NCBI RefSeq assembly: GCF_016433145.1
Contig: NC_058133.1
Location: 333,419,959 to 333,483,958 of the forward strand
DNA from: Gracilinanus agilis
Taxonomy: Eukaryota
Reading direction: 5' to 3'
Length of the DNA: 64,000 nucleotides
Below the pieces are notes generated by a model. It saw only the letters and a program-made list of their open reading frames with translations. It had not been told where the DNA came from and did no database searches. Shown here piece after piece: positions 50,011-57,659 of this stretch. The position numbers and the translations under genes were made by a program. The first letter of the stretch is position 1. Each line of letters starts with the position of its first letter.

Positions 50011-51019
50011 AAGAGAAAGATTACAGAGAAAGGAAAGAATATCCAGGACAGGACCTTGGAGGACTTTTGAGATAAGAATTGTGGTGGATAGATAGGAAGG
50101 AGAATCTAGAGAGAAATGGTGACATGAAAATCCAGAGAGGAGAGAATATCCATGATGAAAGGGTGATGCTATAAAGAGATTAAGAAGAATGTGGACTGAA
50201 AAGAAGTATTTTAATTGGTTTGGCAATTAAGAGATAACCTTGTAGTTTTTGTAACACAATGCAATTACCCATGTGCACATAAAGTCACGTGGGCCATCTG
50301 TATCAAATAGTATATCTAATAGAATAGTCTTTTCCAAATTTTCATGTAGAAATAAAAGTTCATATCTAGTCATAGAATTGAATGGAACATTAGAGGTCAT
50401 CTTGTCCAACCTTTATCTAAAGCATGAATCTCCTCTTCTGCATTCTGGACCAGTGATCATTTGACTTCTATTTGAAGAAAAAATCAGTACACTGTACTGG
50501 GCAAAGATGAAGGAATAGCTCTTCTCTGAGAATCAGTGATTTCCCTGGTGTTAGTACTTTTCCCTAGATATATTTCAATCTACTTACACAATTGATCTCT
50601 GACCCTAAGTCCATTGTCTCTCTCTTTTCCACCCCTTGAAAGAAGGAAGTTGGACTAATGATATTGCAGATTCCTCCCAGCATGGATTCTGTGGTCTTGG
50701 TTTTGCCCTTTGAAGCTACATTGAATAAGTCTCATTCTGGAGCTGATTCTCCCAAGAGGCAGTATGGTATGGTGGAAATAGAACTGGACTGGGAGTCAGG
50801 AAAACAGAGTTCTGGTTCCAACTTTGCCAGTAACTAAATTGTGTGTTGAAAACCCACAGTTTTCTCTTCCATAAAAAAAAAAATTAGAGGTCATTCTAGA
50901 TTATCTGTTAGGTCTCTCTTCCATCTCTTAACATTTTAGTTTCTAATGGAAAATTCTGGTTAGTAGCCCTATTTATTATTGCTATAGCTTTTTAAAAAAT
51001 TTTAAGACTACACTTCCCT

Positions 51020-51300
51020 ACTTCACCTATGCCAAAAATTTAGCCACCACTCATAGGCTCAACCTTACTGCTGATCAGCATGAAAATTTTAACCAGTTCT
51101 GTTTCTGACCTGCACTGGTTTACCCCTCATTATGCAACCTGATGGTTCCCTGTTTCCAGGGGCATCTAATTGATACCAGACCCACTATGGACACCTATTC
51201 AGCTTTAGCCTACTGTAGCTCAGAATTCCTGAACCCAAATGATTCATCAAACCTAGCCTGTCCAGTAACAGAGAATTACAGGTGTGTTACCACACAGGCT
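51020..51300 (-). pseudogene. near full-length 7SL-derived retrocopy
   Basis: antisense CTGCTGATCAGCA..GTTTCTGACCTG..GCAACCTGATGGTTCCC..GAATTACAGGTGTG. Confidence 0.8.
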
Positions 51301-51729
51301 TTGCTACAGCTTTTAAAAAACTTTTCCCTTTTTAGAGCCTTCCTCCTTCCCTCCCGCCCTCCATCCTTTCCTTCTTTCCTTCCTTCCTTCCCTTCTTCGC
51401 AATACCAGTGACCACCCAAGTAATGTTTTACTTAGATTTACCATGTTTACTATAGAGCTGAATGTGCTTTTATTTCTAAAATTGAATTTTTCTTTACAAA
51501 TTTTTTTAGGAAAAAAATTTCCTGAGTAATATATAATTATAATAACAGTATTTAAACATTTAAATTAATAAAACATTTATGTTGTGCTTTAAGGTTTAAA
51601 AACCATTTTCCTTATGACAATCCAGTGAGGTTCAGGAAGTGAGAGGTTTAGTGATTGTCCCAAGGCCACAAGCTAATAAGTGGCAGAACCAGGATTTGAA
51701 ATATGCTTAAGGTCTATGCCCACGTGCCT

Positions 51730-52668
51730 TGTTATGGTCCCAAAACTCTATTCTTAATATAAATAGCCTCTGATTTATTGTGGCGTCCATGTTTCTGAGA
51801 AGGGTTCAAGCTGCATCACAGAATTCCATAGTGCCCCCCAGAACTCTAAGAGAGGGGACAGTTAAGGGCAGTTGGAGTCCTGGTAAAAAAAAGCCAGGTC
51901 ACCCCTCTTGCAAGGGGTCCTGACTCTTGGCTCTTAGCTCAGGGCAGAGATACTCTGTGTAGCTCCTAGGGCTGGGACAGTCTCTGACAGCCAGGGTTGC
52001 TTATTTGATAGCAACCTCAAAGATAGACCTTCAAGCAAGATAACAATCTACCTTTAGTTTAGCTATTTAGGTTTTAGAAGGAAGATTATTTAAGGGCTTA
52101 GATAGGAGTTCAGCCATTCAAGATACATTTCCCCCTTGCTGGGGAAGTGCTGCTCATTTTAACATAGCTGATTTTAGATAGCTTCCCCTAACCTCTCATT
52201 CCTAAATAATTTCCCTTCTTCCTGTTCCCAGAAACCATTAAACCCTTACCATTTAGAAGCTGTGCCTGGATACAAATAATTTGGGGAGATACTCACATCC
52301 TCCATAAGCCAAGTTCCTCTTTCTAGTGACTCTGAAGTTGATCCTAGCTTCAGAGCCAGTGGGCTGCTCCTTAGACAACAAGCCTCATATATTTCTATCC
52401 TGTGGGGGAGTAATTTAGACAAAGAAAGTTATTATCACAAGGGTTTAGTCTCTATCCACTTAACATCTTGAATAACCTCCATAACCAGCTCTGAAAGTAT
52501 TCTGTTAACTGATTTCCAACTGCTTACAGGGTGGAGGGAGGTGAAGGAGTACTCCACGGGCTCTTGCCCCTCCCATCCAGTCAAGTTTACCTGCTTCTCC
52601 TCTAATCTGGGACAGGGGAGTATCCATTGCCATCTGACCCCTAATTTACAATTTACCCTAATCCTACA
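51730..52668 (+). mobile_element. 5' LTR of an ERV-like element (~940 bp)
   Basis: TGTTAT..CCTACA termini, ATTAAA at 52237-52242, immediately followed by a PBS and gag. Confidence 0.8.
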
Positions 52669-52719: not shown

Positions 52720-55186
52720 ATGGCTAACCCTCTTAACAGAATGCTTGTCATGCTAGGGTGCACTTCAGTGCTGCTTTACAGTCTTTGGAGAGCATGTTCA
52801 ACTCTCTGGCTTGTTATAATCCCTCAGTTTTTCATAGAAGTTTTTAGGGTATATGACTCATGCAATAGCTGACCATACCCCTGAGAGAAGCTCTGGCCTA
52901 CGTACCATCAGGGATGGCCATGAAAGAATCATTCTATGGGGCTTTTATGCTATTGGGGAAGTTTTTAAGCTTTACTTTGGGGAAGGCAGAAGTCACTAAC
53001 CTGGCTATGGAAATTGTAATAGACAAATGAAGGTGTTAATAGAAATAAACAAGCAGATAAGGGAAGGCAAGGAGCTAGATGCACAGACCATCATGCAGCT
53101 AGAAGTAATTGTGGGAACAGTTTTAACAAATAATAAAAAAAGCAAAAAAAAAAAAAAAAAAAGGCCAATGAGACAACCAACACTGAACAACAAGTTATAG
53201 GGGCTGAAGTAGCTCTTGACACCATTTTACCCATTGCAGATAGTACTATAATTCAGCCAGATTCGGGGATTGTGCATGTGAAGGGCTATAAACCATTCTC
53301 TGGGGGTGATATAGAAATTTTGAAGAGGAGGTTTCCCCAGTTCTACATAAATCTACATAAGTGGATCAAAGAATACAAAAGGACTGTCTGTTTGTATAAT
53401 CCCCACCTTTGAAGATGTGGAGTTGCTTTTGTCAGAACTGTACACCCCTAGTGAGAAAAAGTTTATAGCTGAGACTAGGAGCAATCCCAACCTAGCCTCT
53501 TGGCCAGAACAACATCAAGACTTGGAGTTATTGTCCCATGCCAACATGGCATATCTGAAACATTGTAGGGAAGATTTGGCAGAAGCGATGTGTCTGCATG
53601 CACGTCACTCCAATGCACGGGGATCCTTTGAAAAGCTTAGGCAAGGGGAAGAAGAGCACACAAGCCTTCATTTAGATAGGCTCTTGGAAGCTGGAGAGAC
53701 AATTTTAGGCTTTAGGGACATGACAACTGAGGATAACATTCAATACTTTAGGCATCAGTTTGTAAAAGGTAGTGCAATTCCCATTCAATCATACTTTAAG
53801 TTGCATTGCCCAAATTGGGAGACCATGCCCATTGAAGAACTTAGGAAGACAGCAGCCTATGTTCATGAATCAAGGGAAACTGAGCCTAAACAGTCTAAGG
53901 CCTCAGAAAAAGACAATGAGATAGCCCACTTGAAAAGACAACTGAAAGAGGCACAAAAGGCAAAATAAATTGAGGAGATAAAGAACATAGCTCTAATGTC
54001 ACATAATCAGAGGAGCCAGAGTAGGCCAAGACAATCCTTCAATAATAATAATAACAACAACTCTGTGAAAAGATGTTTCCTGTGCCAAAAATTGGGCCAT
54101 ATTGTCAGGGACTGTAGATTCAAGTCACAAATAAATTTTAACAAGAATAATTACAACAGCAGCAATAGAAGAAATACCTATTATAATTCTAGATATAATA
54201 ACAACAACAACAAAGACAGTAACACAAAATATAATGACAGAGTAAAACCAAGATGTTGTGATCATACCTGTTCTAGCTTTAATAATTCCCCTAGTTTGTC
54301 CAAGATGGAAGGATATGTGTCCCAAGGAGTGAGACCACGTACTAATTTATGAATTGAGGAAGCAGCATTAGTTGTTGCAGTAACAGACAAGGGCAATGGC
54401 AATGATGAGATAGAGAAGAATGAGAAAGAGAAACTAGGAGAAGTCATAAATTATGGGCTGGTGGATGTAACACAAAGTTACAAGGGAAGGACTGAAGAAG
54501 AGTTGCAGATGGAGTATGATATATTAGAAATAAAAGAGAGGATTTATGGGAAGAAAAACAGTAATTTGGGGAGTAATGAAAGAAAAGCATTTACATCTAC
54601 ACAAAATCTTGATTCAAGCTTGAAGGAAGTAGCATTCATTAATTCTATCTGTACTAGAGAAGAAACATCATTATGTAGTAAGGCCTTCGATCATTTTAAT
54701 CAATCAGTAGTACAGCAAGGCAAAACAACAAGGGCAATGATTTTAGACAGGTCTTCTGATGGGGATCTTATAAAGACAGACATTGTCAACAAGGGAGATA
54801 GGCTCCCTCAGACCATTGAGAAGGAAAGTGCAAAATTCTCAGACACAGGCACAATCTCTTCTCCATCACCAGCTAGAGAAGCTAAAAGGGTAAGTGAAAA
54901 GTCTAGTTGCTACAATGACAAAGAGACTTTATAGTTGGATCCCAATGCTAAGGAATTCTTACCAAGCTTAGCTCAGGGACATTTGCATCAAGATGTAGCA
55001 TACTTTCAAGCCTGCGAAACTCCAAAAAGAGCTGCCTTTGGAGTAAATTCTGAGTCAATGCATTTAAAGGAATTTCAATTCAAAAAATGTCAGGTATGTA
55101 GTGCAGGCATTCCTGTCTTTACTTTACAAATAGGGAAACAGACTCAGTTTCCCTTGACTCATGAACATAGACCGCTGTCTTCCTAA
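52720..55186 (+). pseudogene. gag: disrupted class I ERV-like gag with long C-terminal extension; no pro/pol/env
   Basis: p30-like CA (YKPFSGGDIEILK..YNPTFEDVELLLSELYTPSEK), MHR (LRQGEEEHTSLHLDRLLEAG), CCHC knuckle CFLCQKLGHIVRDC; ORFs 53417, 53996, 54461 and 54935 share one frame separated by single stops; frameshifts near 52840, in the 53144-53162 A-run and at the 53401-53404 C-run. Confidence 0.9.
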
Positions 55187-55248
55187 GTACTTCAATGGGC
55201 ATTGTCTCCCACTGTGGGCAATGCAACTTAAAGTAATGACATTAAGAC

Positions 55249-55290
55249 TGTTAATGTCTTATCTTAATACAGATAGCCTCTGATTTTTGT
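55249..55290 (+). mobile_element. start of putative 3' LTR; only ~40 bp match the 5' LTR
   Basis: TGTTAATGTC..TCTTAATACAGATAGCCTCTGATTTTTGT vs TGTTATGGTC..TCTTAATATAAATAGCCTCTGATTTATTGT at 51730; no PPT seen. Confidence 0.5.
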
Positions 55291-57659
55291 ATTTCCTTTT
55301 AGTAAAGGGACAGCCGAGAGGCTGTAGGAACGGTTCTTGGGAGTTCCTCCCATATTATATAGACCCCACCACCAGACCCATCCAAGGTAGTATCTGTTAG
55401 AAGGAGAGGAAATAGATGAAAAGACTAAAAACCATGAAGGTCTCTAAGATATGACCTATTATTTGGGGTCCCAGATTGGGGTCCCCCCATTTTTTAATCC
55501 TATTTCCTCACTTACAAAGCCACTTTACCATTTGTTTCATAGGATAACTCTCCTTTTTCATACTTCCTTGTTGCCCACTCTAGTAGGTACATCCAAGTTC
55601 AGGTCTAGCACATCCAGGTTGAAGTACTTCCCTTCATTACAGACAATGACAAAGGCATTTAAAGATGGATTATGGTCCTTCTTTAGTTGAATTGTTGATA
55701 AAGTACCAACTAGATATTCAGGAGAGATACATAATTGTCTAGTTGTGTAGATTCTTGTCCTGAAGGCGTGTAATCTATATGGAAAGATAATTCTTTTAAC
55801 ATTGGTAAAACAACATGGGGCTTTACCCAATCATGAGGCAGCAGAACTGGCAACAGAACCCAAGACTTATGGCTCTAAACAGAATGGAATGCTTCACACC
55901 CTTTTATTTAACTGAAAAATTAAATCACTGTGAAACCACAGCCTGGAAATGCTCAGTCAAACCACACATGCACATAATCAAAACAAAGCAAACAACCTGG
56001 CTTCTTTTCATTTCCTCATCAGTAGGAGGCAACATTCTACAATGGAGAATGGAGCAATAAATTGGGAGTCCTAGGACTGGATCCACATCCTACTCTGTCC
56101 CTTCCATGTGTGTTCTTGAGCAAGTCACACATTCTTTCCAGACTTCAGTTTTCTCATCTGTAAAAGGAGGGGATTGAACAAAGTGATCTCCAAGGATGCT
56201 TTCAACTCAAAAGCTATTATTCTCTGATCCTGTGATCTTTTCTCATCCTGATCACCTATGAAGTATAGCTATTAAGGCATTTTAGATGAGACTGATTTCC
56301 ATGATCTTCCTCCCTGCCTCCTAAACAAATCTTATTGCTTTGTGGTCTCAGAATGTCCCTTTAGTTCACTGAGTTTTTCTCAGTGCCTTGCACCATGGTA
56401 GGTGCTTAATAAATGCTAAATTGAATTTATTTCAATTCAATTCAATTGAATTTCCTCTAGGGAAGCAGGGTAGAAAGAGCGCTCAACTGGGAGCTTAGAA
56501 TCTCTCGATTTCAGTCTTGGCTGTGCCACTTAGGAGCAGCCTTGGAAGACTGGGTCAATCTTTTAACCTCTCTGAATCTCTGTTTCCCTATTTGTAAAGT
56601 GAAGACAGGAATGCCTGCACTACATACCTCACAGGTTGCTATGAAGAAAGTGCTTTGTGAACTGTAAAGGGCCATATAAATGGGAGCTGTTCTGTCTTTC
56701 TCTCTTGGTTTCTTTCATTTGTTAAAACACTAAGCTGAATCCTATCTAAGTTTGACCTCTGCAGCCTATCGATCTGTCTGTCTCTCTCTACCTGCCTTGG
56801 ATGTCATCCATTTGTAGAGTGACAGGCAATAGTATAGGCACAATTTCATTGTGATTGTACACTTATCCCCTGAATGTAGTTATGGATTGAATTGTTAGAA
56901 AAGGAAATATAGGATATGGACAGTTGTCTTTGCACCTTCCTGTACTGTCAGAAGACATAATTTTCTTGTTGCTCTTCTGTGTTTTCTCCCTTGGGATCCT
57001 CTTCTCCAAAATATATCTGTATTGGCAGGTGGCAGACATGCTGACATTTGTGGTACAAACAAGATTTAGAGATGAAACACCAAAATGGACTGTCAACATT
57101 TTCCAACCTTATCTTCTGTAAAATACAGTACAATTTTTAAAATGCTCTTTTTATCATCGATTACATTCTGACATTTGTCCCTCATATCTTTGTAAAACAA
57201 CCATGGTCAAAATCACTGAAAGGCAAAGCTCGGTTAATTTCTATCTGAAAATATAATGAATCCACATTTCTGTTTATCACACAAAAAAGTTTTATGGTTC
57301 ATTTCCTGACATAAAAATAATTCTTAGCTATAGTACCCATCATAAAATGAATGATTATAACTTAATATGAAGTTATTCCAACAGATGGCTTTCATTATGA
57401 AAATATATGATAGGAGTAGCTTTTTATATGAAGGTAAGAACCAACACTAGTGGATAGGCAAAGAAGGCAGCTGCTAAGGGCATACATAGTATGTCAGAGA
57501 ACTCAAAAAGGAACAATTCTTAATATTTTTTTAAAAAGTAAAATTTTAAGGAAATATCTTTTGCTTTTATATCACCTAAATCTCCTTTTATCCATTCCTT
57601 TTCTTCCCTCCCAGAGAATCATCCCACATAGCAATGAATATTTTCTTAATATTTCTTTT

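Follow-up and report, generated by a model that had tools for sequence, protein, structure and literature searches.

A PAM2-like peptide beyond the probable Gag end of a decayed marsupial class I endogenous retrovirus

Does a short peptide that resembles the PABPC-binding motif PAM2, and that is encoded in the gag frame of a dead retrovirus, belong to the Gag protein, to a product made beyond Gag, or to chance? The question is raised by a 64,000-nucleotide stretch of Gracilinanus agilis DNA (hereafter the window), in which the codons TAG TTG GAT CCC AAT GCT AAG GAA TTC TTA CCA, at 54932-54964, read as a stop followed by LDPNAKEFLP, in a frame shared with the capsid and zinc-knuckle stretches of an endogenous retrovirus (ERV). 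The original prediction had reported this peptide as a PAM2 motif in a Gag tail, and both the letters and the frame were confirmed. The likeness of the peptide to PAM2, the point at which the retroviral Gag ends, and the character of the coding sequence between that point and the motif each bear on the answer.

The peptide and its likeness to PAM2

In PAM2 peptides, as described in PMC2854688 and PMC7356810, Leu3 and Phe10 fill two pockets of the MLLE domain, Pro5, Ala7, Glu9 and Pro12 add contacts, and position 4 is usually Asn or Ser, which caps a turn and contacts Glu587 of MLLE; position 2 is described as normally making no contact with MLLE (PMC2854688). The PAM2-like core of the window, LDPNAKEFLP (54935-54964, plus strand; positions 3-12 of the motif and codons 195-204 after a UGA at 54350), is identical to the Paip2 peptide 1JGN_B at 8 of 10 residues, and the alignment agrees with the two differences in ten positions counted originally. 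The same Paip2 PAM2 entry is the sole match at E<=10 among 177,635 PDB sequences, with E=0.12. Scored against the seven position classes taken from PMC2854688, the peptide has residues of six: the main anchors of that definition, Leu3, Ala7 and Phe10, are all in place, as are Pro5 (class Pro/Val/Thr), Glu9 (Glu preferred) and Pro12, and the single misfit is Asp at position 4, where the published class is Asn or Ser. Asp is polar and could cap the turn, but would face an acidic partner, and judged from the sequence this misfit may lower affinity.

Among the 127,942 six-frame positions of the window no other site reaches six of the seven classes, and ten sites reach five. The one site falls within one long retroviral coding frame, which accounts for about 560 of those positions, and the number of six-class sites expected in this 562-codon frame is 0.0012. 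PAM2 patterns of our own, graded loose, mid and tight, matched 8, 1 and 0 times in 20,000 dinucleotide shuffles; in 200,000 residue shuffles they matched 128, 3 and 0 times. These counts flatter the match because the patterns were written after the peptide was known. The Pfam PAM2 model (PF07145), run on the window copy, gave 12.8 bits at E=0.1 over positions 8-16 of the 18 in the profile, against a gathering cut-off of 20, a score to which only the residues behind the UAG could contribute, and longer read-throughs contain no PAM2 match at E<=0.5. No tandem repeat covers the motif. The crude FoldIndex is -0.15 for the 47 residues preceding the motif and +0.07 for those following it, on a scale by which the capsid itself scores -0.02.

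The match is thus well beyond local chance, yet within the yield of a genome-wide hunt for any motif. With Asp at position 4 and the Pfam score below cut-off, the peptide is not filed here as a member of the PAM2 family, and the Pfam result goes against the original prediction; the resemblance to PAM2 noted there is upheld, by the agreement with six of seven classes at a site unique in the window and by the match to Paip2. Read from its letters, the peptide would work like a PAM2 if it were bound by MLLE.

Comparison with known systems sharpens both the likeness and the difference. Cellular PAM2 peptides (Paip2, eRF3, Ataxin-2, Tob, PAN3 and LARP4B; PF07145) have in common with the window peptide Leu3, Pro5, Ala7, Glu9, Phe10 and Pro12, and also a hydrophilic upstream context; unlike them, the window peptide has Asp4 and a stop at position 2, scores below the Pfam cut-off and lies in a retroviral frame. 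Viral PAM2 mimics that bind MLLE are reported, with a crystal structure, for the P protein of Hendra and Nipah viruses and the N proteins of HCoV-229E and Berne virus (PMC10132805). Hendra/Nipah P/V/W, 229E N and Berne N share L-x-P-x-A-x-x-F-x-P with the window; in contrast to the window peptide, these mimics are tested binders from RNA viruses, and all 7 of the 7 ligand rows given there have Asn at position 4, where the window has Asp (PMC10132805). The phage screen of that study seems to have been made without retroviruses, since the word 'Retroviridae' is absent from every one of the 13 supplement files searched, out of the 14 of PMC10132805. Among the matches listed in the open-access literature, no description of PAM2 in Gag, retroviruses or transposons was found. 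Strings of the similar form L-N-P-x-A-x-x-F-x-P are present in the polyproteins of some invertebrate LTR elements.

A dead class I element and its relatives

By its sequence, a dead class I ERV of a marsupial-type lineage, in truncated form, occupies the locus. The capsid region of gag starts at 53218-53403 (plus strand; tblastn to residues 149-210 of the relative P0002, frame +1, 40% identity), and capsid and nucleocapsid continue at 53402-54349 (plus strand; aligned with P0002 residues 210-506, 43%), a segment interrupted by an in-frame TAA at 53966-53968. The nucleocapsid part has one CCHC knuckle (54074-54115; Pfam zf-CCHC, 22.5 bits) and an Asn-rich tail. Asn-rich runs flank the knuckle on both sides (54040-54240) and are longer than in P0002, the closest relative.

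A search of 1.84 billion representative proteins with the full frame returned 24 matches, all inside residues 14-331 of 579, of which the best is P0002, an ERV Gag of Monodelphis domestica (LOC103106438) that shares 46% of residues 16-331; the nearest relative is 46-54% identical, and the opossum gene model P0027 is also among the relatives. Both these matches and SINE-like repeats point to a marsupial as the probable host. In a capsid tree of 14 rows (the window and 13 of 25 relatives, with 12 short or knuckle-only matches and P0008 left out) the window groups with P0002, P0003 and P0027 with support of 100/99, and P0005-P0007 adjoin this group. Like P0002 and P0027, the window has one CCHC knuckle, of the form C-C-x-H-x-C-S or similar, G-[AV]-[RN] end motifs, and the same Gag length past the knuckle; the P0002 and P0027 records stop with Gag. 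The class I assignment made originally is upheld by a profile of the clade (A1) that matches the MLV-type capsid structures 6HWX (E=2e-10), 6HWW and 1U7K, by the Pfam Gag_p30 matches of the closest relatives, mostly near or above cut-off, and by the reverse transcriptase (RT) fused to the sister-clade relative P0006, which is closest to MLV (E=3e-43, versus 1e-22 for foamy virus). The window copy itself does not match Gag_p30 and the locus is without pol; its nearest Atlas clusters are Gag p24/p30 at 0.89-0.90. Marsupial class I ERVs that branch between gamma- and epsilonretroviruses have been described, with clades named MEGrv 1-3 (PMC11334065).

Other searches added little. The full frame returned only noise and zinc knuckles from the PDB, and had no match at E<=0.001 among 8,000 candidates of lengths 318-1014, a search probably swamped by the Asn runs; the capsid profile found two matches among 7,998 longer candidates, both Gag-only; and the 64-kb window holds no second copy of the element. 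P0002 is an unbroken 520-residue Gag with a hydrophobic N-terminus unlike the usual matrix start, and is either a young copy or a co-opted gene. The opossum record P0027 bears the name 'protein lifeguard 4 isoform X1', but its sequence reads as a Gag of the same clade, and P0013 has a capsid piece joined to a tyrosine phosphatase domain; both are annotation chimeras or exonised ERV pieces.

The marks of decay at the locus are an A-run (53135-53162), a frameshift near 53403, and the stops at 53966, 54350 and 54932. Downstream, the frame of the element is cut off by an inverted copy (55088-55142, minus strand, 96%) of flanking DNA at 56579-56633, followed with a 3-nt overlap by an inverted copy (55140-55235, minus strand, 92%) of gag positions 53792-53887. 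The patchwork at 55088-55235 is likely an old template-switch repair scar that would have removed downstream sequence, and its gag piece could come instead from another copy of the family. TGTTA-initiated stretches at 51725-51781 and 55249-55290 look like LTR ends and have about 35 nt in common at 86%; beyond these they do not align convincingly, and as an LTR pair they were rejected, the long alignment scoring 92 where the best of 100 shuffles reached 89.5. About 430 nt upstream of the first LTR-like stretch, at 51003-51299 on the minus strand, lies a full-length copy of SRP (7SL) RNA (Rfam RF00017, 71.3 bits, cut-off 70), probably a retroposed pseudogene; no tRNA gene was found. With the frameshift and three stops upstream, the motif gives no product at this locus, and no host function is expected of it.

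The probable end of Gag and the coding stretch beyond

Three in-frame stops, TAA at 53966, TGA at 54350 and UAG at 54932, lie between the capsid and the motif core, of which the original prediction correctly placed the UAG directly before the motif and left the other two unnamed. The TAA is a product of decay, as it falls inside a region that the relatives read through. The UGA (54350-54352, plus strand, context UGA AUU) is the probable natural end of Gag and a candidate gag-pol readthrough codon. It lies 78 residues past the zinc knuckle, and the motif 274 residues past it. Nine relatives were checked for the distance from knuckle to end, and in the eight with a knuckle match the end lies 79 (P0002), 74 (P0005), 69 (P0007), 56 (P0027), 124 (P0008), 43 (P0021) and 30 (P0025) residues past the knuckle, with P0020, which ends in an RT remnant, at 137; the first four of these are the closest knuckle-bearing relatives, 137 is the maximum, and none of the eight reaches 274. 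The P0002 alignment runs to the G-[AV]-R-P directly before the UGA, and in P0027, as in the window, the stop comes 7 residues past the common Gly of G-[AV]. By our own arithmetic, there is a chance of about 12% that one of three stops placed at random over the 579 codons falls in the 56-79 band, which makes the case for this Gag end good, not closed. On this comparison the UGA probably ends Gag, and the motif most likely lies outside Gag, 194 codons beyond the family's Gag end, contrary to its original placement in a Gag tail. Since the nearest related Gags stop where the UGA stands, synthesis of the motif would depend on readthrough or on a start of its own.

Class I elements are described as carrying gag, pro and pol in one frame, joined by stop suppression (PMC1224870), and UGA gag-pol junctions are reported in elements of zebrafish and frog as well as in the epsilon-related SSSV (PMC13517186); the window's UGA AUU is one base apart from the hexamer UGAAGU of the frog element (PMC13517186). 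Folding of the RNA after the UGA was no better than that of shuffles (z -0.41, 69 of 200 as good) in a decayed copy and with a tool that leaves pseudoknots aside, and no Rfam recoding element matched. We infer readthrough at this UGA. The UAG (54932-54934, plus strand) is of a different kind. It occupies position 2 of the 12-residue PAM2 frame, with a coding run of 193 codons before it and 51 after, and no stable fold was found behind it (z -0.98). With an open frame on both sides, no such fold and a position inside the motif, it was rejected as the gag-pol readthrough codon, and is most likely a disabling change brought by decay.

What follows the UGA is real coding sequence of gag-like composition. 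The stretch at 54353-55087 (plus strand), recognized by stop count and codon-position bias, comprises 245 in-frame codons for a charged sequence of low hydrophobicity, and the motif starts at codon 195. It contains one in-frame stop where 16 were expected, and the two remaining plus-strand frames have 19 and 25; none of 5,000 shuffles had a frame with one stop or fewer. This frame is also the one preferred by a codon-position model trained on gag, with 3 of 2,000 shuffles scoring as high. In-frame AUGs lie at 54509, 54737 and 55058. The stretch has no Pfam match, none of the 24 matches from 1.84 billion representatives covers frame residues 335-579, and the stretch alone found nothing at E<=10 among 2,380 candidates of 430-2000 aa. 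The 25 fetched relatives likewise lack a PAM2-like motif, an absence that is no test of the motif because none of them extends into the stretch. The 245 codons contain no match to a protease or pol family, and because the frame is cut at 55087 a protease may have stood further on. A D-T-G near 54840 was set aside as a protease remnant for lack of family support. The simplest reading of the stretch is that it is the long leader of a readthrough product, which presumably led on to pro-pol; no description of so long a leader before a protease was found in the literature searched.

A proposed readthrough motif and its rivals

The explanation that we favour, tentatively and at somewhat less than an even chance, is that a decayed PAM2-type motif lies in a readthrough extension, and that in the active element it recruited PABPC. 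Gag would have ended at the UGA at 54350, and by the class I rule the frame behind it would have begun the Gag-Pro-Pol readthrough product, with a charged leader of at least 245 residues preceding any protease. A disordered part of this leader would have carried the motif in the active element, with Leu3 and Phe10 each seated in one of the two hydrophobic pockets of MLLE in PABPC. The motif might then have kept PABPC bound to the unspliced RNA of the element itself, or competed with eRF3, PAN3 and Tob for MLLE, either of which might have eased readthrough and shielded the RNA from deadenylation or nonsense-mediated decay (NMD).

Because the motif would be made only by ribosomes that read through, its job would likeliest be translational, and its scarcity would suit regulation better than packaging. 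The RNA capture and packaging roles first proposed for a Gag-PABP contact are accordingly weakened, as the motif would be present at a fraction of Gag levels, while control of translation or termination, also part of that proposal, is favoured. eRF3 is reported to bind PABPC through PAM2 and MLLE and so to promote termination (PMC13517186), and PAN3 and Tob to compete with it for the same site (PMC2854688); PABPC is expected to have little effect on stops distant from the tail (PMC13517186), which counts against a strong feedback on readthrough. Two retroelement proteins offer partial likenesses. MLV RT, itself a readthrough product, is reported to block eRF3 on eRF1, which raises readthrough and prevents NMD (PMC4917968), and LINE-1 ORF2p to bind PABPC1 by a PIE contact on another surface (PMC7617806). 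In each, a downstream retroelement product acts on termination factors or binds PABPC1; the contacts differ, being RNase H on eRF1 for MLV and a linker on RRM1 for LINE-1, and neither is a PAM2-MLLE contact. Against the readthrough-leader explanation stand the single decayed copy, Asp4, the Pfam score below cut-off, and the absence of both a protease and a fold.

The main rival, rather unlikely in our estimation, is that a near-PAM2 arose by chance and free of selection in a real, fast-evolving spacer rich in E, K, N and S, and was noticed because scanning many windows for any known motif is bound to meet near-misses. The Pfam score and the PDB E-value of 0.12 fit such an origin, as do the position 4 residue outside the published class and the ordered score (FoldIndex +0.07) of the residues after the motif, and the expectation of 0.0012 per frame must be weighed against some few hundred motif classes and many windows. 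It is harder to reconcile with chance that eight of ten residues are those of Paip2 with every anchor present, and that the sole six-class site of the window sits in its single long retroviral coding frame.

The remaining rivals dispute not the motif but its place. It is improbable that a sub-lineage had a long Gag C-terminal tail, so that the three stops are all products of decay and each Gag molecule carried the PAM2 to tether PABP for packaging or granule targeting: the eight relatives reach at most 137 residues past the knuckle, and only 56-79 in the closest four, P0027 stops exactly at the aligned position, and residues 335-579 are covered by none of the 24 matches. Such a tail would nonetheless agree with the single frame throughout, with the TAA at 53966, which is certain decay and demonstrates that decay stops do occur, with the 46-54% identity of the nearest relative, which leaves room for a different C-terminus, and with the roughly 12% chance of a stop coinciding with the family's Gag end. 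Scarcely more credible is a separate open reading frame of accessory or captured origin in the 245 codons, read from an AUG of its own (54509, for instance) or from a spliced transcript, or taken over as a piece of a host gene with a PAM2, within a non-autonomous element in which pro-pol was always missing at this place. The missing protease match and the three in-frame AUGs would suit this, and capture of genes by ERVs is documented in crocodilians (PMC4299795). However, the stretch is in frame from the first codon past the UGA, with gag-like base and codon-position composition, and a cellular homologue, which a recent capture would have given, was found neither among 1.84 billion representatives nor among 2,380 longer candidates.

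A chance origin of the motif would make the locus one more dead ERV fragment of the ordinary kind. Apart from the motif, the orphan stretch would be of interest as a long coding leader behind Gag, so far undescribed, in an ERV lineage of marsupials. By analogy with the systems above, one may go further and suppose, though doubtfully, that a marsupial class I lineage used a PAM2 mimic made only by readthrough to take the seat of eRF3 on PABPC, with feedback to readthrough and RNA survival, which would be the first such case in a retrovirus. Should the motif prove conserved and be bound by MLLE, viral PAM2 mimicry would extend to retroviruses, and epsilon-related elements would offer a testable link between PABP and gag-pol readthrough.
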